Under the pieces are notes generated by a model. The model worked only from the letters and a program-made list of their open reading frames with translations, was not told the DNA's origin and searched no databases. A program made the position numbers and the translations under genes. A DNA stretch of 64,000 nucleotides from an uncultured Gammaproteobacteria bacterium (GTDB taxonomy: Bacteria > Cyanobacteriota > Vampirovibrionia > LMEP-6097), in the NCBI GenBank assembly GCA_964551135.1, contig CAZKAT010000003.1, positions 1,514 through 65,513 on the forward strand, written 5' to 3'. Below are positions 2,135 through 42,228 of the stretch, in pieces (positions within the stretch are counted from its first letter, which is position 1; each line of letters starts with the position of its first letter).

Positions 2135-4513
2135 ATGAGCTTTTCCGTCAGTTCTAAATTATTATCCAAGGTTCTAGTAGAAGAAGAAAACCTAGATATC
2201 CCTTTGGTTTTGGGGAAGTTCTTAGATGAATTACAGGATAAAGTATTCTGTGAGCAAGCATTTATAATCGATAAAAACCAAGGTAAGGTTTTCACTTGCT
2301 CTAATATCAGTCCAGCAGACATAAGTTGTTCAGGACAAGGTATTGAAAAATACCTTATCGAAGACTGGGGCTACTTATATGTAGTTAAAGCTGCTAAGAA
2401 AGAAGATGCTAGGTTTTGGGATGAAGTTACTGGATCTCTGTCACTGTTCTTACATAGCGCTGAACTTAAAATTCATACTCACCTCATTAGTAATCTCACT
2501 TCTGATATAAGACGCACTCTAAGACCGGATCTAGCATTAGAGAAGATGTATCAAGCATTGAAAGAATATGCTCAATTAAGTGGTTTTTATTTCTTCAAGA
2601 AACTCATTAACACTGATGATCATGAAAATATTTTCAAAGGATATAGTCTTTATTTTAAAGCTACTCATGATGACCTTAGTAAATTTAGCGAAGAGAGAAT
2701 TTTTAACTTAGATGAGATCAAAGAATTAGGATTCATAAGTAATGATTTAGAGATAGAAGTATTCCAATCTAAGGTTAGAGGCAGAGAATGGGGTATTTTA
2801 GTTGCTACGCGCCAAGAGCCTTGGACACCGGATTTGATCGAGACTTTCGAATTATTCTCAGAGCAAATGGCAAGTGTATTTAATCAACACGAGCTACACT
2901 CAGAGAGCTTAACCATGGCACAACGAGAATTCTTGCTGAACCAGATCACCACTAAGATCAGAGAGTCATTAGTTGTCGATAAAATTATCGAAACTGCAGT
3001 CGCAGAGATAGGACAAGTAATGGGAGTAGAATCCTGCGGTATCGTAGTGCTTAATCGTAAGATCAGAGGTAGCATTGGTCACCAAACTTGGTCTATAGAA
3101 GATGATTTCTCTTCTAAGATGACAGATGCTATTTATAGTACGCTGAGAACCGAATTAGAACCCAATTGGCTAGAGCCTTCTATTCAAGCGCCACGAGGAT
3201 TTCAAGATGGTGAAGAAACAGGAACTAATGGCTGGCAATCTATATCAAGCTTAGGTTTACAATCATATCTATGTTGTGGTTTATTCAGAGACAATACTAG
3301 AGAATTAATCGGTATCCTAGCAGTAGGATTCTTCAATCAAGTACGTAACTGGACTCACGATGAACAGTTACTACTAGAGGGTGTCGCCAAACAATTAGAG
3401 ATAGCACTTATTCAAGCTTCTATCTATCAAGAAGCTCAGCAAACCAAACGCCAAATGGCACTCCTACACAGGCTTAGCAGTGATATCAGAGACAGCTTAG
3501 ATATATCTATAGTATTAGGGCAGATTGCAAGTGGCATTGGTGAAGTATTAGGACTTAACAGATGCTTCGTAAGAAGATTCTCCAATGACTCTAATGTAAT
3601 TAAGACTGAAGAAGAATATTGCTCTAAGGGCTTTGATCCAAGTGCTGATATGATGTTTAATTTCGAGCGAGAGTGGATAACTGAGCTAGCTTCAGGTGAT
3701 AGCGCGCTTAAAGCTGTGGAAGTTCTCAATATAGCTTCAGTGGCATCCAAGCTCAGTGAAGAAAGTCCAGAACTCTTAAAGATAGCTGAGGCTATTCAGC
3801 TTAAAAGTTACCTTTCTATACCCCTAGTAGCACGTGGTAAGATCCTTGGCTCAATCATAGTTCACCAGTGTGATAGAGAACGAAACTTCCTGCCCGAAGA
3901 GATAGAGTTTATATTCAGAGTTGGATCTGAAGCTGCTATCGCTATCGAGCATGCTGAGTTGTTTGATACTATAAATAAATTTAATAAGACCGATCCTGAT
4001 ACTGGACTCTATAATAAACGTTATTTTAGAGAAATAGCAATGCAAGAAATTGCTAAAGCACAAAAAAACTCCAATCCTATATCTTTCATGTTAGTCGACG
4101 TAGACTACCTTAAAGAAATCAATGATGATCCAGATCATGGTGGACACGAAGCAGGTGACGAAGCGATTCAGATACTTGCTACCGTACTCACTAACACCGT
4201 CAGGCAGACTCCTGTAGATGAAGTTAGCAAGCGCATCTCTGATGTAGTTGGAAGATTTGGTGGTGATGAGTTTATGATACTCTTGCCTAATACTCCACTA
4301 GAAGGTGCAGCCACTGTCGCCAAGCGTATTGCAGAGCACTTAGCTAAGGCTAAACATAGTACTTGGAAACGAGCTCTCACTTGCAGCATTGGGATTTCTT
4401 CTGCTCCACATGATCCTTATGACTACGAGCAACTTAAGACCCTTGCCGATAAAGCTCTCTATCTCTCTAAGCATAAGGGTAGAAATGGGTTTAGTATTAC
4501 GACTGAGTTGTAA
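2135..4513 (+). CDS. GAF-domain diguanylate cyclase (GGDEF)
   Basis: 792 aa; C-terminal RFGGDEFMILLPNT GGDEF signature; long N-terminal region consistent with tandem GAF-type sensor domains. Confidence 0.8.
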   Translation: MSFSVSSKLLSKVLVEEENLDIPLVLGKFLDELQDKVFCEQAFIIDKNQGKVFTCSNISPADISCSGQGIEKYLIEDWGYLYVVKAAKKEDARFWDEVTGSLSLFLHSAELKIHTHLISNLTSDIRRTLRPDLALEKMYQALKEYAQLSGFYFFKKLINTDDHENIFKGYSLYFKATHDDLSKFSEERIFNLDEIKELGFISNDLEIEVFQSKVRGREWGILVATRQEPWTPDLIETFELFSEQMASVFNQHELHSESLTMAQREFLLNQITTKIRESLVVDKIIETAVAEIGQVMGVESCGIVVLNRKIRGSIGHQTWSIEDDFSSKMTDAIYSTLRTELEPNWLEPSIQAPRGFQDGEETGTNGWQSISSLGLQSYLCCGLFRDNTRELIGILAVGFFNQVRNWTHDEQLLLEGVAKQLEIALIQASIYQEAQQTKRQMALLHRLSSDIRDSLDISIVLGQIASGIGEVLGLNRCFVRRFSNDSNVIKTEEEYCSKGFDPSADMMFNFEREWITELASGDSALKAVEVLNIASVASKLSEESPELLKIAEAIQLKSYLSIPLVARGKILGSIIVHQCDRERNFLPEEIEFIFRVGSEAAIAIEHAELFDTINKFNKTDPDTGLYNKRYFREIAMQEIAKAQKNSNPISFMLVDVDYLKEINDDPDHGGHEAGDEAIQILATVLTNTVRQTPVDEVSKRISDVVGRFGGDEFMILLPNTPLEGAATVAKRIAEHLAKAKHSTWKRALTCSIGISSAPHDPYDYEQLKTLADKALYLSKHKGRNGFSITTEL

Positions 4514-16901: not shown

Positions 16902-19900
16902 CTAGATACAAGCTCCAGCGGCTACAAGTCCAACCCAACTAGAACCATCAAAGAAGCATAATTCATTCGTATCAGAATCTACGTAAATATCTCCCAGAGA
17001 AGGCGAACTTGGTGCCGCTGACCTTGGTTCCAAACGCATAAGATCAGAAATATGAACAGTTCGCTGTGGAATATTAGTACCAACTCCTAATCGTTTATTC
17101 ACATTGTCCCAATATAAACTAGATTGGTCTTCAATAAGCACACCAGAAGTATTTGAGAATAATATTGAACCATTAGTAAAGTTACCGTCTAAATTAGCAC
17201 CATTAATAGTTGTGGCCTTAACAGTTGTGATATTACCCGTAGTAAAATTAGCTGTAACACCATTAATTTGTGCAGTTGCATTGATAGTACCAGTAACATC
17301 AAGAGCAGTTGCTGGGCTGGATTGATTTATACCAATCTTAACAGCGGAAGTATCTACATAGAGTTGATCGGTGTTAACAGCAAAATCTCCAGTAGTTGAA
17401 AGAGATACGTTTAAGTTAGTACCTGCTCCTGGGGTGATAGTCATGGCACCAGTACCAGTGAAAATAGTTGAAGCACCATCAAAACTTATATTAGGATCTG
17501 CAATAGAAACTGTCGTACTATTAATATCCAAAGGTGCATCCGCAGCCACAGTAAGAGTTTTACTAGCTTTAGTAAAACTCAATGCACCATTGCCTCCTAG
17601 AGCACTACTATCATTGAATTGAAAATTAGTATTAGCTCCTGCTGCCACAAACGATACACTACCATTAGTTAAATTATATTTAGTGCCACCATCATCCATA
17701 AAGTAAAGCTTAGAGTTAGCGGTATTAACATAGATCTGACCAAAGTTACTGATAGCGGTTCCAGGTGCAGCAACCTCATATAGAGCGGTAATACCATTGA
17801 CAGTAAGCAGAGCATCAGCATTAGTAGTACCCACTCCTAATCTATTAGCTGTTCTATTCCAGTAGAGTTTAGAATTATTCTGACTAATTATCCCAATATT
17901 ATTAGAGAAAAGTATGGAACCGTTAGTGAAATTACCATCTAAGTTAGCACCGTTTATAGTTGTAGAGTTAACCGTAGTTATATTGCCAGTAGTAGCTCCC
18001 ACGGTTGTAGCATTAACAGTAGTTATATTACCAGTAGTAGCTCCCACGGTTGTAGCATTAACAGTAGTTATATTAGCAGTAGTACCTGTATAGGTTCCTA
18101 CATAAGCGTTTGCAAAGCGAATTGCATTGGAACCTAAATCATATAACGCGTTACCATTAGGACCAATATTACCTACTACTTGTAATTTAAAACTACTAGG
18201 CAAGCTAGTTCCTATTCCTACATTCTGCGCAAAATATCCATTCTTAGTTACATGAAGATCACCTACGACATCCAAGTTATAAGCAGGAGTATTAGTTCCA
18301 ATTCCAAGTCTATTAAAAGCATCATCCCAAAAAAAGGATACTTCATCTGCATTAAAGGAACCTGGCGTAAGTCCTCTGAATTGAATTGCACCAGGGATAG
18401 TTCCCTGTGATGTATCAGATCCATTATTGACCACATTTACATTTGCCCAGTAAGCAAAGCCACTAGCATCAGTAGTGAGTACATAACCTACAGTTGCACC
18501 ATCCCTCATGGTAATTCCATTTGTAGTTAATAAACCTCTTACTTCTAATTTACTAGCTGGAGTATTAGTACCAATTCCCATTCTATTATTAGCACTATTC
18601 CAATAAACTTGAGAATTATTTTGGCTTATAGCTCCAGCAACATTTGAAAATAGAAGTGAGCCATTGGTAAAATTCAAATCAACTGTGTTGATATAAGCAT
18701 TTGCAAAGCGAGTTGTGTTTGTACCTAAATCATATAAAGCACTAGCATCAGGTCCAATACTACCTGCTACTTGCAATTTAAAACTACTTGGCGTAGCAGT
18801 CCCGATTCCAACATTAGTAGCGCTGGTATCTACATAAAGATGATTAGTGTTAACAGCAAAATCTCCAGTAGTAGCAAGAGACACATTTAAATTAGTACCA
18901 GCACCTGGAGTAATAGTCATAGCACCGGTCCCAGTGAAAGTAGTTGAAGCTCCATCAAAAGCAATATTAGTATCTGCAATAGAAACAGTTGTACTATTTA
19001 TGTCTAAAGGCGCATCAGCAGGGACAGTTAGAGTTTTACTTGCTTTAGTAAATGTTAGAGCTCCATTACCACCAAGAGCATTATTATCATTAAATTGAAA
19101 ATAAGTATTAGCTCCAGCTACCGTAGAAGCACTACCATTAGTTAGGCTGTAAACCACACCACTATCATCTTTAAAATACAATCTAGAGTTCGTAGAATTT
19201 ACATAAACTTGTCCAAAGTTACTCATTGTACTTGGCACTGTAGTTTTAAATAAAGCCAAAACCCCATTAATAGTCAGCATGGCATCAGCATTACTGGTTC
19301 CAACTCCTAATCTAGAATTAGTTCTATCCCAATAAAGCTTAGAATTGTTTTGAGAAATTACACCAGCAGCATTTGAAAACAGAAGCGAACCATTACTAAA
19401 GTCACCATCAAAGCTAGTCGTAGTACCGTTAAAAATACCAGAGACAATGACGTTAGTAAAGCTTGCATTAACACCATTCACAGAGCCAGATGAAAGAACC
19501 TTAGTTAAATTAGCAGTAGTACCATTAATATTAGTAGTAGATAAAACTTTATTGCTAGTGATAGTGCCGCTTAAATTTGCAGCAGTACCATTGAAATTAG
19601 TAGCTAAAACTGTACCTGCAATATAAGCATCATCATCTACCTCAAGATCATCGGCGGCAATAATATCACCAACACCATTTATAAAAGTAGCAATTCCTCC
19701 TCCTACATCTAATTGAGCTGCAGGACTACTGTCACCAATGGCTACCATATTAGTTGATCCTTGCGCAAAAATCAGATGAGTTTGACTGCTTCCTTCTACT
19801 CTAAAATTCACTGAATTAGCAGCTTCATTGAAAATTGCTCCACCATTAGCATTCAATATGATATCTGCTCCAGTTATAGTAGTACCTCCTATAACTGCAC

Positions 19901-21197
19901 TTTGATTTCCAGAACTAGCCCTAGGATATAAATATGTACCTTGATTAACCCATTCACTAGCAGTCGTAAGTAATTGAAGGTTTTGCCAACTAGCTAAACC
20001 GCTAGCATTAGAAACTAATATAAATCCTGCTCTTTGACTTCCATCTTTGATTTGCAATGATCCATTAAAAATTGCATTACCTTGTACTAATCCATTATGA
20101 GTAAAACTAAAAGGACCATTCACCAGGGTTCGTCCATTTAAAAAAGCATTCTGCAGCTTTCCATTACTAGTAAATGATAAAAGAGCATTTATATTACCAC
20201 CATTAGCAATAGAACCAAGAGGACCTTGCGCACCTTGGGGACCTGGGATACCTTGTGCTCCTGAACCACCTGGAATTCCTGCTGGTCCCCTCGGACCAAT
20301 AGGTCCCTGGGGTCCCTGAGAGCCAAGTATTGACCGCGTTCCATTGCTAGTAAAATAAAAATTTACACCATCGTATTCTATAGCTCCATCTACGATATTA
20401 TTAGTTAAAAGTCCTGCCTCAAATTTAATACCAGGACTTTCTCCATCACCAGCTTTAGCAGTAAAATAAGCAGGCTCAGTAATATCGATAACATTACCAT
20501 TACCTTGACCTCCACCAGATCCTTTGGAACTAGTTGATTTGATATATTGAATTCCTTTTATTGAAATTGGTATGGTAACTTTATAAAATCCCGATCTAGA
20601 TTTTATGACACTAGTAGTAATTTGTTTTTGTGGTTTAGCTTCAAAAACCACGTTATCAAAAATATATTGCAACTGACAATCATTAAAATTATTCTGATTA
20701 CAATCTGCATTAGTAAAGGCTTTCAGGGTTTCATTATTTTGGCCTGATAAATTTATAGCAGAGATAGTAGTTTGATAAGTATTTATTAGATTCTTATTAC
20801 TGTTATAAACTTCAAACTGAAGCGTTTTAGAATTCTTAGTAAAATATCCAATATTTATATTTAGTGTTCTGATTTTAGTTTCAGGAGCAAAGGTTATATT
20901 TTGAGTATTGAGAAATGTTCTAATATTGTTATTGATTTCAAAACAATCTATTTTAAAACTACTATTATTGTTGTTATTACTTATATAAAGATCTGTTGAA
21001 TCTATTTTAATATTAATACTATGCGTCTCTTTAAGATTAAGTTCTTGATCTTGCTTAAGTAAATAAAATTTTAGATTTGGATCAGAACCACTTATGAAAT
21101 CTATTGCAATATATGGATCAGATACGGCATTAACATAGCAAAAATTAAGAAGAAGCAAAAATATAAAAATTCTTCTGGTTAATTTATATTTATTCAT
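16902..21197 (-). CDS. Large secreted collagen-like repeat protein (possible surface fibre/adhesin)
   Basis: 1431 aa; N-terminal signal-peptide-like segment; collagen G-X-Y run (GSQGPQGPIGPRGPAGIPGGSGAQGIPGPQGAQGP); two roughly 240-aa near-identical internal modules; recurrent motif NGS(I/L)LFSN...LYW(D/N)...RLG(V/I)GT; very T/N/G/S-rich. Confidence 0.7.
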   Translation of the reverse strand: MNKYKLTRRIFIFLLLLNFCYVNAVSDPYIAIDFISGSDPNLKFYLLKQDQELNLKETHSINIKIDSTDLYISNNNNNSSFKIDCFEINNNIRTFLNTQNITFAPETKIRTLNINIGYFTKNSKTLQFEVYNSNKNLINTYQTTISAINLSGQNNETLKAFTNADCNQNNFNDCQLQYIFDNVVFEAKPQKQITTSVIKSRSGFYKVTIPISIKGIQYIKSTSSKGSGGGQGNGNVIDITEPAYFTAKAGDGESPGIKFEAGLLTNNIVDGAIEYDGVNFYFTSNGTRSILGSQGPQGPIGPRGPAGIPGGSGAQGIPGPQGAQGPLGSIANGGNINALLSFTSNGKLQNAFLNGRTLVNGPFSFTHNGLVQGNAIFNGSLQIKDGSQRAGFILVSNASGLASWQNLQLLTTASEWVNQGTYLYPRASSGNQSAVIGGTTITGADIILNANGGAIFNEAANSVNFRVEGSSQTHLIFAQGSTNMVAIGDSSPAAQLDVGGGIATFINGVGDIIAADDLEVDDDAYIAGTVLATNFNGTAANLSGTITSNKVLSTTNINGTTANLTKVLSSGSVNGVNASFTNVIVSGIFNGTTTSFDGDFSNGSLLFSNAAGVISQNNSKLYWDRTNSRLGVGTSNADAMLTINGVLALFKTTVPSTMSNFGQVYVNSTNSRLYFKDDSGVVYSLTNGSASTVAGANTYFQFNDNNALGGNGALTFTKASKTLTVPADAPLDINSTTVSIADTNIAFDGASTTFTGTGAMTITPGAGTNLNVSLATTGDFAVNTNHLYVDTSATNVGIGTATPSSFKLQVAGSIGPDASALYDLGTNTTRFANAYINTVDLNFTNGSLLFSNVAGAISQNNSQVYWNSANNRMGIGTNTPASKLEVRGLLTTNGITMRDGATVGYVLTTDASGFAYWANVNVVNNGSDTSQGTIPGAIQFRGLTPGSFNADEVSFFWDDAFNRLGIGTNTPAYNLDVVGDLHVTKNGYFAQNVGIGTSLPSSFKLQVVGNIGPNGNALYDLGSNAIRFANAYVGTYTGTTANITTVNATTVGATTGNITTVNATTVGATTGNITTVNSTTINGANLDGNFTNGSILFSNNIGIISQNNSKLYWNRTANRLGVGTTNADALLTVNGITALYEVAAPGTAISNFGQIYVNTANSKLYFMDDGGTKYNLTNGSVSFVAAGANTNFQFNDSSALGGNGALSFTKASKTLTVAADAPLDINSTTVSIADPNISFDGASTIFTGTGAMTITPGAGTNLNVSLSTTGDFAVNTDQLYVDTSAVKIGINQSSPATALDVTGTINATAQINGVTANFTTGNITTVKATTINGANLDGNFTNGSILFSNTSGVLIEDQSSLYWDNVNKRLGVGTNIPQRTVHISDLMRLEPRSAAPSSPSLGDIYVDSDTNELCFFDGSSWVGLVAAGACI
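17080..17900. repeat. Internal direct repeat, copy 2, within the collagen-like gene (approximate bounds)
   Basis: Near-identical antisense ORFs at 17371..17622 and 18847..19098 (about 90% identical over 83 aa) show two copies of a roughly 0.8-kb segment spaced 1476 bp apart. Confidence 0.7.
17986..18075. repeat. Perfect 45-bp tandem repeat (2 full units plus partial flanking copies) inside the collagen-like gene
   Basis: Units 17986-18030 and 18031-18075 are identical (ccagtagtagctcccacggttgtagcattaacagtagttatatta); encodes repeated TTVNATTVGATTGNI; unit length is a multiple of 3. Confidence 0.8.
18560..19380. repeat. Internal direct repeat, copy 1, within the collagen-like gene (approximate bounds)
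   Basis: Same as copy 2; protein-level modules NGSLLFSNAAGVISQNNSKLYWDRTNSRLGVGT... and NGSILFSNNIGIISQNNSKLYWNRTANRLGVGT... Confidence 0.7.
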
Positions 21198-29469: not shown

Positions 29470-29964
29470 TTATTTATAAGCACAACCCTTATCATGATCA
29501 TTAACCATACCTACTGCTTGCATGAAAGCATAACAAATAGTCGCTCCGACAAATTTAAACCCATGCTTCTTAAGATCCTTGCTCATAGTATCAGCATCTT
29601 TAAAAGACCAAAGATAATCATTAAAGCTTAGACCTTCTTTCTTGAGCTGTAAGTATGCTTTAGCGTTGATGATCACAGAGTTAATTTTAAGTCTATTGCG
29701 AATGATACCAGCATTATTCATAAGCTTCTCTACCTGCTTTTCAGTAAACTTAGAGACCTTCACTGGATCGAAATTCATAAACGCCTTTCTATAATTCTCG
29801 CGCTTATTAAGCACAGTCTCCCAGCTCAATCCAGCCTGTGCACCTTCAAGGCAAAGCATCTCAAACAATTTCTGATCATCATAGATAGGTACTCCCCATT
29901 CCTTATCATGATAGTCAACGTATAAGGGGTTAGCCAAATTAACCCAATGACAACGCTTCTTCAT
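29470..29964 (-). CDS. tag: DNA-3-methyladenine glycosylase I
   Basis: 164 aa; YHDKEWGVP and LEGAQAGLSWETVL motifs typical of Tag; start overlaps the mutS stop by 4 nt. Confidence 0.85.
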   Translation of the reverse strand: MKKRCHWVNLANPLYVDYHDKEWGVPIYDDQKLFEMLCLEGAQAGLSWETVLNKRENYRKAFMNFDPVKVSKFTEKQVEKLMNNAGIIRNRLKINSVIINAKAYLQLKKEGLSFNDYLWSFKDADTMSKDLKKHGFKFVGATICYAFMQAVGMVNDHDKGCAYK

Positions 29965-32717
29965 AGACTCGATTCAAACAACGGCAACTTACCTATATCA
30001 AGCGAACCATCTTCACTAATAGCATCAGTAATATCGTGCTGATCAAGTTGCTTTTTAGTCATACCAAGCTTGCGGCTACGCTGTGCCTGAAGCTGATTAT
30101 TAATCGCTTTCGCTCTATCCAATACTGACTTCGGCAAACCTGCTAAGCGAGCGACTTCTATACCATAGCTGCGATCAGCTGAACCTTCCACTACTTTATG
30201 CAAGAACTCTATTCTAGTCTTAGCATTAGGACTATCATTTTCTACTACTAATACTTGATAGTTTTTAATACAAGGATATAACCTGTCTAAATTTGCAAGC
30301 TCATGATAGTGAGTTGCAAATATAGTGCGCGCTTGAGTAGTCTTAGCAATATGCTCAACTATAGACCAAGCAATCGCTACACCATCATAAGTACTAGTAC
30401 CTCTACCGATCTCATCTAAAACTATAAAACTTCTATCAGTCATAGAATTAATTATGGTCGCTGTCTCGTTCATCTCCACCATAAACGTAGATCTACCAGA
30501 TGCTAGATCGTCACTTGCGCCAATACGCGTGAAAATTCTATCTACTAATCCAATACATGCTTTAGTCGCTGGCACATAGCTACCCATCTGCGCAAGCAGG
30601 ATGATAAGAGCATTTTGGCGCATATAAGTACTTTTACCTGCCATGTTGGGACCAGTTAAAATCATCAGCTTACATTCCCTGCGAAAATCGTCATCTGCTG
30701 CGTTACGCTCGTCCCTCGAACTGCTCATTGACGTTCTAGTCAACTCCGCGTTCTCGGGACTCGCAAGCCTTGCATCTGAACGATTTTCGGCGGGGATATT
30801 TCCCACACCGAGCGTTATATCATTCGGCACAAACTCTCCAAACTTAAGCTTCTGCTCAAGAACAGGATGTCTTCCTTCTTCGATATACAGTTCATGAGAA
30901 TTAAGAAGTTCAGGACGCTTATAGTTTCTTTCTAGTGCAAGTAATGCCATAGACAGTAAAGCATCTAGCTGTGCGACTTGCAGTGCTATTTGTTTAATAA
31001 TCGGTGACTTAATTGCAAGTGATTTACGTAAACCAGAATAGATCTCATATTCTAAAGCATTACGCCTAGATTCTGCATGAGTAACTTTCTCCTCAAACTC
31101 AATTAGTTCCTCGGTTACAGCTCTGATGGTATTCACCATGGTCTGCTTGATCACATAGTGCTCTGGAAGTTTCTTTTCATTAAGTCTAGAGGTCTCGATA
31201 AAATAACCGTGTACCTTATTAAAACTTACTTTAAGGTTTTTAATGCCAAGCTTCTCTCGCTCAGCATCTTCAAAGTTCTTCATCCAAGCTTCAGAATCTT
31301 CTACTAAAGAAATCAATTCATCCAACTCTGCATTATAACCATGTTTAAGAATATTACCCTCGGTAACAGCAAGAGCCGGATCATCTTTCACCGCATTATC
31401 CACTACTCTAATAAAGTCCAAAGCTTGCTCTGGAATATATTTCAAGCTTGTAAGCAAACCAGATTGCAAACCCTGCATCAAAGCAGAGAGCTGCGTCACT
31501 ATAACCATTGAATGTTTCAATGCCACAGCTTCGCGTGGACTGATAAGTTCACTTGCAAGTCTATTAGAAAGCCTATCTATATCATAAGTCTGTGCTAGTA
31601 AATCCTTAAGTTCATTACATAGACTTGGATCTGAGACCAGTTCAGTAACAGCATCCAATCTAGCGTTAATAGCAGGGATATCATATAGTGGTTGCTCCAT
31701 CCATGCACGCAGTTTACGTCTGCCAAGTTTCGAAGACGTGCGATCTATCGCTGAGAAAAACGAACCAGCACTATTACCTCCCAAGGTTTTATTAAGCTCA
31801 AGATTGCGGCGAGTGCTTGCATCAAGCATCATATACTCACTTACATGATAGCTACGAATTTGATCAAAATTCTTAGCTGAGTTATTAGAGAACTCTGCTC
31901 CTTGAGTTTCTTTCAGATATTCAATAATCGCACCAGCAGCACGAAGTGCATAGCCATTGCTTTCTGTGCCCAAACTATCCTCAATCTGTTTCACTGAATT
32001 AAGCTTGAAGAGATCTTCTATATTTTGCACCGCAAGCTTAGTATCAAAATTCCGGTAATTAAATCCACTCAGATAAAATTCAATATTCAACTGATCTAAA
32101 TTAAACATCAATTCTTCTTCTCTGACGATTTGTCCTTCTAGCTTGCCGGCAGGTTTAGATGGCACTATGATTTCTGAAGCATTAATTCTTGCTAACTCTT
32201 GTTCTAAGTATTCAGCTTTAATTTCAGTAAGATAGAACTCGCCTGTAGAGATGTCTGCATAAGCCAAACCATAATGAGAATATGGAGTAGTCGAGTAAAT
32301 CGCGAGAATAAAATTATTCTGATATGAATCTAGAAACTCGAGATCATTGATAGTGCCAGGAGTGAAAACTTTAGTAATCTCGCGCGGCACTAAACCCTTG
32401 CAAGTTTTAGGGTCAGCCATCTGCTCAGCGATATAAACCTTATAATTGCGCTCGAGTAATTTAGCGACATAAGGTCTAATAGCGCGTGCTGGCACTCCTG
32501 CCATAGGAATACGCCCACCTGGATAAGTACTTTCAGGACGTCCGGTTAGAGTTATTTCCAGTTCTTTAGCAATAGTCTCAGCATCTTCAAAAAAGGTCTC
32601 ATAAAAATCCCCCATTCTAAATAAAAGTACTGCTCTACCTTGAAGCCTAAGCCTGGCATTGAGGTATTGCTGCATTACTGGAGTAAAATTAGAGAAATCT
32701 TGAGTTGGGGTCGACAT
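29961..32717 (-). CDS. mutS: DNA mismatch repair protein MutS (carries an in-frame repeat-element insertion)
   Basis: 918 aa; N-terminal mismatch-binding region (MQQYL...GDFYE) and ABC ATPase Walker A GPNMAGKST; about 33 extra residues immediately N-terminal of the Walker A are encoded by repeat element C. Confidence 0.9.
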   Translation of the reverse strand: MSTPTQDFSNFTPVMQQYLNARLRLQGRAVLLFRMGDFYETFFEDAETIAKELEITLTGRPESTYPGGRIPMAGVPARAIRPYVAKLLERNYKVYIAEQMADPKTCKGLVPREITKVFTPGTINDLEFLDSYQNNFILAIYSTTPYSHYGLAYADISTGEFYLTEIKAEYLEQELARINASEIIVPSKPAGKLEGQIVREEELMFNLDQLNIEFYLSGFNYRNFDTKLAVQNIEDLFKLNSVKQIEDSLGTESNGYALRAAGAIIEYLKETQGAEFSNNSAKNFDQIRSYHVSEYMMLDASTRRNLELNKTLGGNSAGSFFSAIDRTSSKLGRRKLRAWMEQPLYDIPAINARLDAVTELVSDPSLCNELKDLLAQTYDIDRLSNRLASELISPREAVALKHSMVIVTQLSALMQGLQSGLLTSLKYIPEQALDFIRVVDNAVKDDPALAVTEGNILKHGYNAELDELISLVEDSEAWMKNFEDAEREKLGIKNLKVSFNKVHGYFIETSRLNEKKLPEHYVIKQTMVNTIRAVTEELIEFEEKVTHAESRRNALEYEIYSGLRKSLAIKSPIIKQIALQVAQLDALLSMALLALERNYKRPELLNSHELYIEEGRHPVLEQKLKFGEFVPNDITLGVGNIPAENRSDARLASPENAELTRTSMSSSRDERNAADDDFRRECKLMILTGPNMAGKSTYMRQNALIILLAQMGSYVPATKACIGLVDRIFTRIGASDDLASGRSTFMVEMNETATIINSMTDRSFIVLDEIGRGTSTYDGVAIAWSIVEHIAKTTQARTIFATHYHELANLDRLYPCIKNYQVLVVENDSPNAKTRIEFLHKVVEGSADRSYGIEVARLAGLPKSVLDRAKAINNQLQAQRSRKLGMTKKQLDQHDITDAISEDGSLDIGKLPLFESSL
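30692..30790. repeat. Repeat element C (about 97 bp), in frame within mutS
   Basis: About 90% identical to 38316-38412 in gatB (shared core catctgctgcgttacgctcgt...cattgacgt...agtcaactccg...actcgcaagccttgcatctg); GC-rich relative to flanks. Confidence 0.8.
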
Positions 32718-34191: not shown

Positions 34192-36714
34192 CTAGAGGCT
34201 AAACACTGACTTCTCTTCCGCTTCTGGAGCTATTTCTAGCTTAGGTCTATATTTTTCTATATCTGCAGGACTTGCAAGCCTATCATAACCACAACCCTTA
34301 GTATCAGAGCAGGCTACTTTATCACCACGCTTAAGAGTTTTATACATCATTAATTTATTGCATTGCGGGCAATGCTCATTGATTGGCGGATACCAGAACA
34401 CTGCATCACACTTAGTCTTAGACCAAGAGTTACAACCATAGAAAATCTTACCGAAGCGTGATTTCTTCTCAACTATCTCACCTTCACAACCTTCTTTAGG
34501 ACAATGTACACCAGTTTTCTTTTGTATAGGCGAAGTATGTTTGCAATCCTTAGTAGTACAAGCAAGGTAGTCACCATAACGTCCATAACGAATCACTAGC
34601 GAACCGTGCTTCTTACAGTCAGGACAATCTTCCTCTGCATAAGGTCTATCATCTGGAGCAGGCTTGCCTTCCTTAGTTAAATTAATAATGGTCTGACAAT
34701 CTGGATACTTAGAACAACCTAAGAAGGGTCCGAAACGAGATGACTTGAGATTCATAGTCGCACCACAACTAGGACAGTTATATTCTGTTGGTATAACAAT
34801 ATTCTCTATCTCACCTGATGCTTTCTTGACTATATCAATGAAGCCAGGGTCTAAACCTTCAGCAGGATCTTTCTCAACCTTAGCAGTCTTAGCATCTGAA
34901 TCTTCTTTTTTCTTCTTGCCGCCACGTTTAGGTTTGATCTTCTCTTTTTTCTTCCAATCTTTACCGAAATAAAATTCCTTGAGCATCACTATCCAATCTT
35001 GACCATGCTCTGCTACTGCATCTAAGCCGCTCTCCATCTGCGAAGTGAAATCTACATTAATATACTTACCAAAGTACTGTACCAATAACTCATTAACTTG
35101 CACACCGAGTCGGGTAGGTCTGAGTGCAGTACCATTCTCTACTTTCTCAACATACTTACGATCTTGAATAGTAGCAATAGTCGGTGCATAAGTAGAAGGT
35201 CTTCCTATGCCCAATTCCTCTAATACCTTCACCAAGCTTGCTTCATTGAACCTTGGTGGACCTTCAGTGAAATGTTGTTCTGGGCTAGCTTTGATCAGCT
35301 TGATTAGAGTGCCTTCTTTAATATCATCAGAGAACTTAGAATCTACTTCTTGAGCTTCCATATCCTCATTAATCTCATGACCACCATCAAATACTATTGA
35401 ATAACCTGCAAATATTTTCTTGGAGTTACTTGCTCTAAATAGCAGATCGCCCTTCTCAGATTCAATCTCCACAGTCTGTATCTCAAGCTTCATTGCCGTC
35501 ATCTGAGACGACATAAACCTCTGCCAGATTAGCTTATAGAGCTTGTATTGTTCATCAGTCAGATAGCTCTTAATTGATTCAGGAGTTTTGTCGATATAAG
35601 TAGGTCTAATCGCCTCGTGTGCATCTTGTTCGTTTGCTTTTTTGACCTTACCGTAAATATTTGGAGGATCAGGATAGTATTTATCTCCCCACTTATTAAG
35701 AATGTATTGTTTAGCTTCTGCCTGAGCTTCTTCAGCAATGCGTAAGCTATCAGTTCTCATATAGGTAATCAAACCAACTTGATCATTGCCACCAAGCTTG
35801 ACACCCTCATAAAGCCCCTGCGCTACCTGCATAGTACGTCTAACGGTAAATCCAAGCGCATTACTTGCTGCTCGCTGTAAAGTAGAAGTCTTAAAAGGAG
35901 CTTGTGATTTCTTGCTATTAGGTTTAGTAGAGATCTTAGTAACACTGAGCTTTGCAGATTTAATACGCTCAGTAATCTTATCCACTTCTGCTTTAGAACT
36001 AATCACCATCGCCTTAGTAGCATCGTAATCCTTCAGTGGGCTAACGATACGTTTAGAATCGACTTGCGCTAAAGCAACTCTAAAAGGATGATCTTTAGCA
36101 GCTTCTGTGACATCAGCATCTACTGACCAATATTCTTCAGGTATAAACTTAAGTATCTCTGCTTCTCTTTCACAAATTAATCTCACCGCAATAGACTGTA
36201 CTCTACCAGCACTACGTCCACCAATCTTGCGCCATAATAACGGACTGATCTTATAACCAACTAACCTATCCAAAATTCTTCGAGCTTGCTGAGCATCTAC
36301 CAGAGCTTGATTGATCTCCCTTGGATGCGCCACAGCACTTTTAACAGCATCAGGAGTGATTTGATTAAACGCAATTCTAGAAAACTTTTTACTCTTAATA
36401 ATCTGAGATAAATGCCACGCAATAGCTTCTCCTTCACGGTCAGGGTCGCTTGCTAGATAGATATGCTCAGCCTTCTTAGCAAACTCATTAAGCTCATCAA
36501 CAACCTTCTTCTTACCGGTCATAATCTCATAGCTTGGCTCAAAGTTATTCTTAACATCTATGCCTAAACCCTTAGCTGCAAGATCACGAATATGTCCAAC
36601 ACTTGATTTAACCAAGAAATCAGCCCCTAGTATCTTCGTAAGGGTCTTGGATTTAGCAGGTGACTCAACTATCACCAGGTATTTAAAATCTTTCTCTGAA
36701 CTTGTTTTAGCCAT
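34192..36714 (-). CDS. topA: DNA topoisomerase I
   Basis: 840 aa; N-terminal TOPRIM (LVIVESPAKSKTL), type IA topoisomerase core, C-terminal Cys4 zinc-ribbon repeats (CPSCGATM...CSKYPDC). Confidence 0.9.
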   Translation of the reverse strand: MAKTSSEKDFKYLVIVESPAKSKTLTKILGADFLVKSSVGHIRDLAAKGLGIDVKNNFEPSYEIMTGKKKVVDELNEFAKKAEHIYLASDPDREGEAIAWHLSQIIKSKKFSRIAFNQITPDAVKSAVAHPREINQALVDAQQARRILDRLVGYKISPLLWRKIGGRSAGRVQSIAVRLICEREAEILKFIPEEYWSVDADVTEAAKDHPFRVALAQVDSKRIVSPLKDYDATKAMVISSKAEVDKITERIKSAKLSVTKISTKPNSKKSQAPFKTSTLQRAASNALGFTVRRTMQVAQGLYEGVKLGGNDQVGLITYMRTDSLRIAEEAQAEAKQYILNKWGDKYYPDPPNIYGKVKKANEQDAHEAIRPTYIDKTPESIKSYLTDEQYKLYKLIWQRFMSSQMTAMKLEIQTVEIESEKGDLLFRASNSKKIFAGYSIVFDGGHEINEDMEAQEVDSKFSDDIKEGTLIKLIKASPEQHFTEGPPRFNEASLVKVLEELGIGRPSTYAPTIATIQDRKYVEKVENGTALRPTRLGVQVNELLVQYFGKYINVDFTSQMESGLDAVAEHGQDWIVMLKEFYFGKDWKKKEKIKPKRGGKKKKEDSDAKTAKVEKDPAEGLDPGFIDIVKKASGEIENIVIPTEYNCPSCGATMNLKSSRFGPFLGCSKYPDCQTIINLTKEGKPAPDDRPYAEEDCPDCKKHGSLVIRYGRYGDYLACTTKDCKHTSPIQKKTGVHCPKEGCEGEIVEKKSRFGKIFYGCNSWSKTKCDAVFWYPPINEHCPQCNKLMMYKTLKRGDKVACSDTKGCGYDRLASPADIEKYRPKLEIAPEAEEKSVFSL

Positions 36715-41823: not shown

Positions 41824-42228
41824 GGGGGCGTATAGCTTTGACAGGGGTCAGAGATGGTAAAACGCGAGTCCAGGTAGCCTAGGTCCTGGTAAAGCCAAGG
41901 CAAAACATAAGTGTAAATGAATTTGAAGTAACTGTAGCGCAAGCTACACCTGCTGAGCGTTTCGCTCAAGCAGCTTAGTCCCGACATACTGCGGACACTT
42001 CCTCGCTGCTTAACGGCTAACCGGTTAGGATTGTGAGGCACTAAACAGGTCAGTGCATGAATCATACTTTGATAAGTTTAGTATGAGGAGTAAAGATCAT
42101 AAGCTTAGAACCCGTTGAGTGTCTATGCTCTTAAGCACGGCAACAGCTTAGATTTATAGACTACACTCGTAGTGGTTTATCGTTGAAAACTTTTGGACGC
42201 GAGGGGCAGTTCCTCGCCGCCTCCACCA
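41824..42228 (+). ncRNA. ssrA: tmRNA (transfer-messenger RNA), standard one-piece form
   Basis: 5' GGGGGCG pairs with 3' CGCCUCC (7-bp acceptor stem with G3:U70 alanine identity pair) followed by encoded ACCA; 5' GGGGGCGUAUAGCUUUGACAGGGG resembles the tmRNA tRNA-like domain; T-arm GCGAGG/CCUCGC; internal open frame ending ...AQATPAERFAQAA then UAG, consistent with an Ala-Ala-terminated tag. The overlapping 81-aa minus-strand ORF is considered spurious. Confidence 0.75.

Follow-up and report, generated by a model that had tools for sequence, protein, structure and literature searches.

We believe that the perfect 45-nt repeat in a fibre gene of the window, which is the whole 64-kb stretch of DNA that was analysed, arose very recently, when one structural unit of 15 residues was duplicated in tandem and in frame, and we put the probability of this reading at roughly 75%. 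The unit belongs to a short array, and this array makes up the spacer that links two modules of a putatively secreted, collagen-like and tail-fibre-like protein, which is probably a trimer. The duplication is a clean example of the growth of a fibre protein, in which a structural repeat was copied in frame, and it matters little as it stands. The unit, which is a side result, is possibly more useful than the duplication itself. The positions of all features are listed in Table 1.

Table 1. Features of the fibre gene and its tandem array, in positions of the window
Feature	Position	Strand	Basis
Putative secreted fibre protein gene, 1431 aa	16902..21197	-	ORF; exact protein called on public contigs
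Predicted signal peptide, aa 1-24, MNKYKLTRRIFIFLLLLNFCYVNA	21126..21197	-	read by eye from translation
Family-defining N-terminal domain, aa 25-291	20325..21125	-	alignment A1
Collagen-like tract, 13 G-X-Y triplets, aa 292-330	20208..20324	-	regex on protein
Spacer B (paralogous), aa 836-841, INTVDL	18675..18692	-	alignment A3
Spacer C, aa 1033-1088, holds the tandem array	17934..18101	-	translation; alignment A3
Older degenerate partial unit, upstream in coding sense, GTTANI (related to ATTGNI)	18076..18093	-	repeat family D5
Perfect 45-nt unit, upstream copy in coding sense	18031..18075	-	identical to 17986-18030
Perfect 45-nt unit, downstream copy in coding sense	17986..18030	-	identical to 18031-18075
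Older degenerate partial unit, downstream in coding sense, ITTVNSTTI	17959..17985	-	TRF array start 17959
Part of module X2, diverged duplicate (82% nt identity) of 18805-19104	17329..17628	-	D2, D4, D9
Spacer D (paralogous), aa 1302-1338	17184..17294	-	D5 copy 17209-17253; alignment A3

The perfect pair and its array

The original prediction described two identical 45-bp units with partial copies on either side, and the DNA bears this out. The two units agree letter for letter, and degenerate partial units were found at both ends of the pair. The unit length is divisible by 3 and the units lie in frame in the ORF, so the reading frame is always kept. The peptide repeat quoted in that prediction, TTVNATTVGATTGNI, does occur twice (aa 1044-1058 and 1059-1073), but its coding blocks in that register are not identical in DNA. 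The blocks at 18024-18068 and 17979-18023 differ by 1 synonymous change (GGT vs GGC), and the perfect DNA repeat is shifted by 7 nt relative to the quoted peptide.

The TRF results showed an array at 17959-18084 with a period of 45, 2.8 copies, 93% matches and a score of 217, and a 15-bp period is nested within it. This array is by far the top-scoring tandem repeat of the window, where all others score 63 or less, and the 45-nt pair is the sole exact direct repeat of at least 30 nt in the window. The array is made up of 2 perfect and about 2 degenerate copies inside the ORF. Within repeat family D5, the identity is 91% between the copy at 17959-18003 and the next copy and 76% between the copy at 18049-18093 and the reference copy. 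The downstream degenerate unit runs on as NG below 17959. The site has the make-up of an in-frame intragenic tandem repeat of the VNTR (variable-number tandem repeat) type, with head-to-tail units whose length is a multiple of 3 and whose nucleotide sequences agree closely (no difference over the 45 nt of the perfect pair). Given identical peptides, the probability that the same 15 codons would be drawn twice from the gene's own codon usage is about 1e-5, which excludes chance as the source of the 45-nt identity.

The fibre protein and its spacers

On public contigs, the fibre gene has trmD on one side and uppP on the other. The context genes are housekeeping genes (trmD, uppP, and thrC) and none is of phage type, which indicates that the fibre gene is not part of a prophage. 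The gene is chromosomal and lies in a Melainabacteria genome related to Caenarcaniphilales, the taxon being taken from the relatives of TopA, among which P0039 of the closest relative is 85% identical, and the host is a non-photosynthetic relative of the cyanobacteria.

The protein consists of a signal peptide, a family-specific N-terminal domain, a short collagen-like tract, and duplicated tail-fibre-like modules that are linked by Thr/Asn-rich spacers. Read by eye, the predicted signal peptide has a basic n-region, a hydrophobic core, and VNA before the likely cleavage site; on this reading the protein would be exported, and the Pfam matches of the protein include no anchor domain. A search for relatives matched 11 proteins at E<=1e-5, the query itself among them. 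The N-terminal domain is common to P0002, P0003, and P0004, with 36-49% identity and many invariant columns in alignment A1, including FEAKPQ(K/R)Q, and by reading the same region is also carried by P0007-P0009.

The gene had been called collagen-like, and this name is partly apt: the protein has 13 uninterrupted G-X-Y triplets, but the tract is short. Pfam Collagen gave 21.8 bits, under its cut-off of 27.2, and the NCBIfam Scl models gave 17-22 bits against cut-offs of 325-400. PDB collagen peptides matched the tract at E=0.009, and TRF found a 9-bp period at 20221-20255 within it. The tandem repeat itself lies outside the tract, about 714 residues downstream. PHROG 5906 (unknown function) matched the modules in 5 stretches (8.8e-23), and the tail-fibre collagen PHROGs matched only around the collagen tract, with the best stretches within aa 219-349. 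The copies of repeat families D2, D4, and D9 are about 1470-1476 nt apart, and part of module X2 is a diverged duplicate of 18805-19104, which indicates that the gene grew through duplication at several scales. Two ORFs on the plus strand, at 17371-17622 and 18847-19098, overlie the fibre gene and were rejected as antisense shadows of its duplicated modules.

Spacer C runs from an RFANAY motif to the next NFTNGS module and consists of about eleven Thr/Asn-rich 5-residue sub-repeats. Spacer D ends in the same TTGNITTV(K)ATTINGANLDG as spacer C and is one 15-residue unit shorter. Spacer B has the same flanking motifs without the run of sub-repeats and is 50 aa shorter. The orthologous spacer of P0002 (45% identity) is shorter by exactly 30 residues, which equals two units. 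The gaps in alignment A3 are accordingly exactly 30 columns for P0002, 50 for spacer B, and 15 for spacer D. On this alignment evidence, spacer C has, compared with its orthologue and paralogues, become longer or shorter by multiples of 5 and 15 residues.

The 15-residue unit in other proteins and the origin of the pair

The unit, TTGNITTVNATTVGA, is composed of three 5-residue sub-repeats, TTGNI-TTVNA-TTVGA. The unit was recovered by a phmmer search of 1.84 billion representative proteins, in which 21 proteins matched at E<=1e-3 and inspection left about 17 as genuine; P0019, P0031, P0033, and P0036 were set aside as unrelated low-complexity repeats. Without a single letter changed, the unit reappears in trimeric autotransporters with a YadA anchor, in tail-fibre-like proteins, and in one protein of a virophage-like contig; the arrays there hold 1-4 units. 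For example, P0022 (YadA_anchor) and P0035 (YadA head, stalk, and anchor) carry it in arrays of 3, in P0022 within the segment aa 170-250, and the contig of P0018, another carrier, also has a Sputnik-type capsid gene. An ORF on an IMG/VR viral contig carries the unit as well, and the exact back-translated pattern matched this single contig in IMG/VR. The results showed that the unit is a conserved fibre building block under purifying selection on the peptide and not a private low-complexity sequence.

The unit had no meaningful match in sequence searches of Pfam, PHROG, NCBIfam, or PDB, and matches to rotavirus VP8* at E of about 2 were regarded as noise. The Pfam YadA head and stalk models did not match the unit, and a tblastn search of GenBank phages with the spacer returned no match, probably because the low-complexity filter was on. 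Literature searches for the peptide string of the unit and for a pentapeptide stalk in trimeric autotransporters found no paper. A unit that has no family in Pfam, PHROG, NCBIfam, or PDB and is conserved letter for letter in adhesins and viral fibres, from organisms of very different G+C content, deserves in our view to be considered for definition as a new repeat family and for structure determination. We also speculated, as a bolder reading that we rate as unlikely, that this unit of 5-residue quanta is a stalk repeat of trimeric fibres that has so far gone undescribed and is scattered widely (in trimeric autotransporters, in fibres of phages and virophages, and in the melainabacterial collagen-like protein), that its copy number sets the fibre length, and that the perfect pair is a polymorphism still segregating in a natural population.

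The DNA of identical-peptide neighbouring units was compared in two arrays outside the window. In P0015, whose own array has a 45-bp period, 2.8 copies, and 89% matches, 5 of 45 nt differ, and in P0022 8 of 45 nt differ, with 0 amino-acid changes. The absence of any difference in the window, set against 5-8 in 45 there, indicates that the duplication is recent. From the divergence in P0015 and P0022, it looks as though such structural repeats are usually stable.

Perfect identity would equally result from gene conversion between two older adjacent units, which would then have been recently homogenised (concerted evolution) and not newly duplicated. The older degenerate copies at the flanks are consistent with this, as they place an array there before the perfect pair. 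However, the spacer of P0002 is shorter by exactly two units, which points to a net gain here or a loss there, and the adjacent identical units of P0015 and P0022 have not been homogenised in DNA. We consider gene conversion highly improbable. For the recent duplication that we favour, the older imperfect copies, which lie 45 nt apart and share, for example, the exact 11-nt AATATAACTAC, may have allowed replication slippage or unequal recombination to produce the new unit. The two perfect 45-nt direct repeats would then be the spot in the gene most prone to more gain or loss, and any further change there would be ordinary low-frequency repeat instability and would involve no dedicated switch.

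AlphaFold2 predicted a periodic beta pattern over the array, with a 15-residue period, short strands, and pLDDT of about 68-74, and the mean pLDDT of two runs was 57-58, which is modest confidence. Foldseek searches of the PDB with the AlphaFold2 models found nothing at E<=0.001, and left-handed beta-helix enzymes that appeared at E of 2 or more were not taken as evidence for the fold. The protein is probably trimeric, judging from the collagen tract and the proteins in which the unit is found elsewhere. An added unit may be one more structural unit in a beta-structured stalk and would lengthen the fibre. The gain would be roughly 1.4 nm in a three-chain beta-helix with one rung per 5-residue sub-repeat, and about 0.5 nm in a single-chain solenoid with 15 residues per coil. 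Because the AlphaFold2 confidence is modest and Foldseek gave no match at that cut-off, the length effect per unit is something that we only infer.

Possible length variation and comparison with known systems

The original prediction had taken the pair for a candidate slipped-strand variation site. This holds insofar as the protein is of the fibre type and predicted to be secreted, the repeat keeps the frame, the duplication is recent and of a type to which slippage or unequal recombination gives rise, and the spacer has changed in length over evolutionary time by steps of 5 and 15 residues. It does not hold in the sense of a classical contingency locus, as there are two perfect 45-nt units. 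We believe that the site could vary in length, and the four contigs with the whole gene have no variant on record. All 4 encode the same 1431-aa protein, and these contigs may not be independent samples. The 90% cluster of the protein has 1 member. The exact TrmD and UppP proteins were found on 5 contigs, 4 with the whole fibre gene plus Logan contigs that end in the repeat, and no different fibre allele was found beside them on public contigs. A scan of genome contigs with the 1431-aa protein gave only distant matches (27-48%) and no close relatives, a scan of JGI metagenomes with the N-terminal-domain alignment gave 5 loci at 28-42% and no close relatives, and a word-index protein search with the 1431-aa protein gave no match between 100% and 45% identity.

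A stronger claim would be that this is an active site of frequent length change, where units are often gained and lost so that the population is mixed, for surface variation or for evasion of phages or predators. The in-frame repeat, the perfect identity of its units, the putatively secreted fibre protein, and the different spacer lengths among the paralogues and the orthologue are in line with this. Studies have shown that the polymorphic intragenic repeats of Legionella pneumophila are on average more internally conserved than the monomorphic ones (PMC2639597), and that host range changed when a collagen-like gene of a virophage lost 81 nt of repeats in frame (PMC7242381). On the other hand, polymorphism was seen in only 7 of the 26 intragenic repeats of the Legionella survey (PMC2639597). 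There are just two perfect units here, public contigs hold no alternative allele, the 90% cluster is single-membered, and the related arrays, of 1-4 units, have diverged at synonymous sites where examined (two arrays). We regard frequent variation as improbable. Given strains or long reads, the array is the one place in the fibre gene to seek length polymorphism.

The count of two units might also be an assembly artefact, through the collapse of a longer array or through a mis-join in a short-read de Bruijn assembly. The name of the reference contig is SPAdes-style, and the largest default k of metaSPAdes is 55; with this k, three or more perfect 45-nt units in a row close into a loop, and the shortest way through it contains exactly two of them. 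In the only other assembly of the strain, the Logan assembly (k=31) of SRR17828886, the sequence breaks inside the repeat; contig L019 ends at 18046, contig L017 starts at 18015, and both have 0 mismatches to the window outside the break. These ends are, however, as expected for two or more units. With a longest exact repeat of 45 nt, k=55 leaves no ambiguity in the two-unit path, reads of 100-150 nt would be long enough to cross the array, and the identical protein is present on four contigs. An artefact is quite improbable in our opinion. Since the repeat breaks k=31 assemblies, unit counts at such sites in short-read MAGs should be treated as provisional.

Among known systems, the site is an ordinary in-frame duplication of the VNTR kind and not a demonstrated variation switch. 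It shares with contingency loci the proposed mechanism, which is misalignment of tandem repeats during replication. Those loci have many copies of 1-9-nt units, and in them a frameshift or a change in promoter spacing turns expression on or off, whereas here the unit is 45 nt, two copies are present, and the frame stays intact.

A close parallel is the collagen-like gene lpg2644 (Lcl, Lpms31) of Legionella pneumophila, which is annotated as tail-fibre-like and has a 45-bp in-frame unit whose number changes the protein length without frameshift (PMC2639597). In Lcl the G-X-Y region itself is encoded by the units, of which there are 19 copies with 85% identity, and 12 alleles have been recorded (PMC2639597). 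In contrast, the copies of the window gene (2 perfect, about 2 degenerate) belong to a Thr/Asn-rich spacer at a long distance from the G-X-Y tract, and one allele was observed. In the class of Scl1/2, BclA, and Lcl, the variable repeat encodes G-X-Y, and here the repeated peptide at aa 1044-1073 is TTVNATTVGATTGNI. The fibres of phages and of virophages (Guarani/Sputnik ORF8) likewise come from repetitive fibre genes with a collagen-like tract, and P0018 places the unit on a virophage-like contig. In the virophage, spontaneous in-frame repeat loss has a phenotype, namely host range (PMC7242381). The viral repeats are 27-nt collagen repeats, whereas the window gene is chromosomal (trmD-uppP) and its unit is different.

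The spacer also resembles PF00805 and other short-repeat beta-solenoids in its 5-residue periodicity and in its end, GANLDGNFTNG, which is similar to A(D/N)LXX. Its central residues are Ala/Ile/Val-Thr and not Leu/Phe, and the conserved super-period is 15 and not 20 residues. Pfam Pentapeptide was not among the matches listed for the spacer (maximum E-value 10, where the HMMER filters drop most hits above about 0.1) or for the whole protein (E<=1), and the spacer is not assigned to PF00805. Finally, the YadA family of trimeric autotransporters has the identical 15-residue unit in P0022 and P0035, and these proteins are trimeric fibres of modular build, with the repeat number determining how long they are. 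The window protein differs from them in having no YadA anchor, head, or stalk domain in Pfam and no C-terminal YadA-like membrane anchor, and what it has in common with this family is the unit alone.

Perfect 45-bp repeat and its origin

The original prediction was that two identical 45-bp units (17986–18030 and 18031–18075) with partial copies at their sides lie in the collagen-like gene (here called the fibre gene). Both parts were confirmed: the two 45-mers match letter for letter in the window, and degenerate copies with 76% and 91% identity flank them. Tandem Repeats Finder gave a single array at 17959–18084 (period 45, 2.8 copies, 93% matches, score 217) with a far weaker nested 15-bp period, and the other tandem repeats of the 64-kb window scored 63 or lower. 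The pair is the sole exact direct repeat of at least 30 nt within the window. The array is on the minus strand within ORF 16902–21197, which encodes the fibre protein (1431 aa), and TTVNATTVGATTGNI occurs at aa 1044–1058 and aa 1059–1073. The blocks coding for TTVNATTVGATTGNI differ by one synonymous base (GGT vs. GGC), since the peptide register lies 7 nt away from that of the perfect DNA repeat. Chance or codon bias was ruled out as the source of the 45-nt identity: given identical peptides, the probability that 15 of 15 codons coincide is about 1e-5 with the codon usage of the fibre gene itself.

The repeat lies outside the collagen-like tract, approximately 714 residues downstream, in a spacer (spacer C) between a motif ending in LGSNAIRFANAY and the following module, NFTNGSILFSN. 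Spacer C is composed of 5-residue sub-repeats (GTTAN ITTVN ATTVG ATTGN ITTVN ATTVG ATTGN ITTVN STTIN GANLD). Both flanking motifs also occur earlier in the protein, nearly spacer-less (INTVDL, aa 836–841), and ahead of the C-terminal module there is another, related spacer (aa 1302–1338). The gaps between spacer C and its orthologous and paralogous spacers indicate that spacer length evolved by 5- and 15-residue steps. N-x-S/T sequons (NIT, NAT, NST) are dense, with 6 in the 56-residue spacer and 49 in the whole protein; this may merely mirror the Asn/Thr-rich composition.

Synonymous sites drift even in units whose peptide is held constant by selection, so 0 differences in 45 nt indicate a recent event, and the degenerate partial copies on either flank indicate that an older array pre-existed. 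We believe that replication slippage or unequal recombination is the simplest mechanism for the perfect pair: the older imperfect copies, 45 nt apart, supply microhomology, such as an exact 11-nt match, AATATAACTAC, seen in the aligned rows, and one unit would then be duplicated. Gene conversion between two old units could also make them identical. Two findings make it less likely: the orthologous spacer of homologue P0002 is two units shorter, and in neither of the identical-unit arrays examined elsewhere (P0015 and P0022) had the DNA of the units been homogenised.

Features of the window, the fibre protein and the proteins carrying the unit
Feature	Position	Strand	Remark
Signal-peptide-like sequence	N-terminus of fibre protein	-	read by eye
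N-terminal domain	aa 25–291	-	36–49% identity to homologues P0002, P0003, P0004
Collagen-like tract	aa 292–330, window 20208–20324	-	13 uninterrupted G-X-Y triplets
Asn/Thr/Gly-rich modules	rest of fibre protein after the tract	-	duplicated inside the gene
Spacer C	aa 1033–1088, window 17934–18101	-	56 residues, repeat-bearing
Orthologous spacer, P0002			exactly 30 gap columns vs. spacer C, spacer alignment A3
Paralogous spacer B			50 gap columns vs. spacer C, A3
Paralogous spacer D			15 gap columns vs. spacer C, A3
GAF-GGDEF protein gene	2135–4513
ORF, 571 aa	24210–25925	+	large; no Pfam match at E<=1e-5
ORF, 475 aa	25928–27355	-	large; no Pfam match at E<=1e-5
MutS gene	29961–32717
Topoisomerase I gene	34192–36714
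tmRNA gene	41824–42228	+	Rfam RF00023, 93.6 bits
ORF, 970 aa	44976–47888	+	large; no Pfam match at E<=1e-5
Letter-for-letter TTGNITTVNATTVGA	window 17979–18068 (aa 1044–1073); L024/L025 3001–5349; L026 3001–4641; L020 893–1843; L027 23–2704		L numbers: other loci
P0022			unit carrier; YadA_anchor
P0035			unit carrier; ESPR, YadA_head, YadA_stalk, YadA_anchor
P0018			unit carrier; Sputnik-type major capsid gene on same contig
P0030			unit carrier; pectate-lyase-like domain
P0016, P0021, P0023, P0026, P0028, P0034			unit carriers; tail-fibre look (by reading)
893-aa ORF	L027		exact unit; IMG/VR viral contig

The fibre gene and its host

By reading, the N-terminal-domain region is also present in homologues P0007–P0009. 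Pfam Collagen scored 21.8 bits on the fibre protein, under the 27.2 cut-off. The numbers of G-X-Y triplets in the window protein, P0002, P0003, and P0004 were 13, 10, 12, and 7, respectively, and by sequence comparison this tract is a second length-variable segment of the family. Module copies of 300 nt with 82% identity lie 1476 nt apart, and members of further intragenic repeat families are about 750 and 1470 nt apart. Antisense to the gene run two plus-strand ORFs of 83 aa each (17371–17622 and 18847–19098) that are nearly identical; they mirror the 1476-nt module duplication, and very likely neither is a gene. PHROG 5906 (unknown function) matched five stretches, matches of tail-fibre PHROGs were confined to the surroundings of the collagen tract, and no solved structure matched apart from collagen peptides. 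The neighbouring genes are trmD, uppP (BacA), thrC, and cofH-like, which indicates that the fibre gene is chromosomal and outside any prophage.

The nearest homologue is P0002, from a Candidatus Caenarcaniphilales MAG (45% identity); none with a higher identity was returned from any genome. The window topoisomerase I has 76% identity to a Candidatus Melainabacteria protein, 72% to Caenarcaniphilales, and approximately 51% to Obscuribacterales. These relationships indicate that the host is a melainabacterium near Caenarcaniphilales. The G+C content is 36%. A closer relative exists, whose TopA (P0039, on an NCBI contig of 63.7 kb) has 85% identity to that of the window; in this relative the fibre gene may be missing, may not have been assembled, or may evolve fast.

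The 15-residue unit and its predicted structure

With the spacer region as query, a word-index search returned three metagenomic proteins (P0015–P0017) with the repeat alone in common. In a phmmer search of aa 1034–1090 against 1.84 billion representative proteins, 21 proteins were found at E<=1e-3; 4 were rejected on inspection as unrelated low-complexity repeats, and the others bear TTGNITTVNATTVGA or near-identical units. The in-phase arrays hold 1–4 units each, in DNA with a G+C content of 36% to 58%. In P0015 and P0022, adjoining units have the same amino acids, yet 5 and 8 of 45 nt differ, respectively; such synonymous-only divergence marks a peptide under purifying selection. A 45-bp array (2.8 copies, 89% matches) is present in P0015 (L020) as well, and P0015 shares a C-terminal domain with P0018 (546 aa), which consists mostly of 5-, 10-, and 15-residue units of the same kind. 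On the 15-kb JGI contig L026 (883–2895 and 3001–4641), the Sputnik-type major capsid gene adjoins P0018. P0018 and P0015 are probably virophage fibre proteins.

The unit matched no entry in Pfam, PHROG, NCBIfam, or PDB, and its peptide string was absent from the literature searched. Judged from these comparisons, it is a repeat conserved among fibre proteins and not low-complexity sequence private to the window protein. Letter for letter, it recurs in fibre proteins that are otherwise unrelated: YadA-type trimeric autotransporters, tail-fibre-like proteins, a protein on a virophage-like contig, and an ORF on a viral contig. It thus seems to be a fibre-stalk repeat that has not been classified and that adhesins and viral fibres have in common; this is the most interesting by-product of this study, and we regard the unit as a candidate undescribed stalk repeat.

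The unit seems to occur in obligate trimers (trimeric autotransporters and collagen-like proteins), and indels come in a quantum of 5 residues (gaps of 15, 30, and 50 in A3, and 10-residue variants in P0018). We infer that this fits a three-chain beta-structure with one sub-repeat per rung, in which each unit would add approximately 1.4 nm. AlphaFold2, run on the monomer only, gave a periodic EEEEE--EE--EE-- pattern (period 15 residues, pLDDT about 68–74 within the array; mean pLDDT 57.8 and pTM 0.49 overall), and a second model was similar. This would instead suggest a single-chain solenoid with 15 residues per coil and approximately 0.5 nm per unit. Foldseek gave no significant match for either of the two AlphaFold2 models. 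Under the three-chain and solenoid models alike, the duplication would lengthen the stalk by one structural unit and leave the flanking modules undisturbed.

Length variation at the repeat

The array had been proposed as a candidate slipped-strand variation site, which is partly supported. A genuine recent slippage-type in-frame duplication stands, as does the change of spacer length in evolution; for ongoing or programmed variation we found no evidence. Four contigs carry the exact 1431-aa protein, and no other sequence is in its 90% cluster. The exact flanking proteins TrmD and UppP were on the same 4 contigs and on two Logan contigs of run SRR17828886. The Logan contig L019 ends at window 18046 (3' end) and L017 begins at window 18015 (5' end), both within the repeat, with 0 mismatches to the fibre gene over 3152 and 1114 nt, respectively. 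This assembly is of the same strain (0 mismatches), with the gene split in two exactly inside the repeat. Because Logan assemblies are built with k=31, an exact repeat of 45 nt necessarily breaks them; the contig ends are consistent with at least two units and do not give their number, and short-k assemblies cannot give a count here. The reference contig name is SPAdes-style, and the default largest k of metaSPAdes is 55. If this was used, two units are unambiguous and at least three perfect units could collapse to two, so the two-unit count is provisional. No close relative was found in genome or JGI metagenome collections.

The repeat belongs to a known class, the in-frame intragenic tandem repeats of fibre or surface proteins, and comparative evidence on its variation points both ways. 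Perfect copies in the window number just two, arrays elsewhere hold 1–4 units with DNA-level divergence where examined, and only 7 of 26 intragenic repeats varied in a Legionella survey (PMC2639597). In that survey, however, polymorphic repeats were on average better conserved internally than monomorphic ones, and the collagen-like lpg2644 of Legionella pneumophila has a 45-bp unit with 19 copies and 12 alleles (PMC2639597). In a virophage, in-frame deletion of 81 nt of repeat sequence from a collagen-like gene altered host range (PMC7242381).
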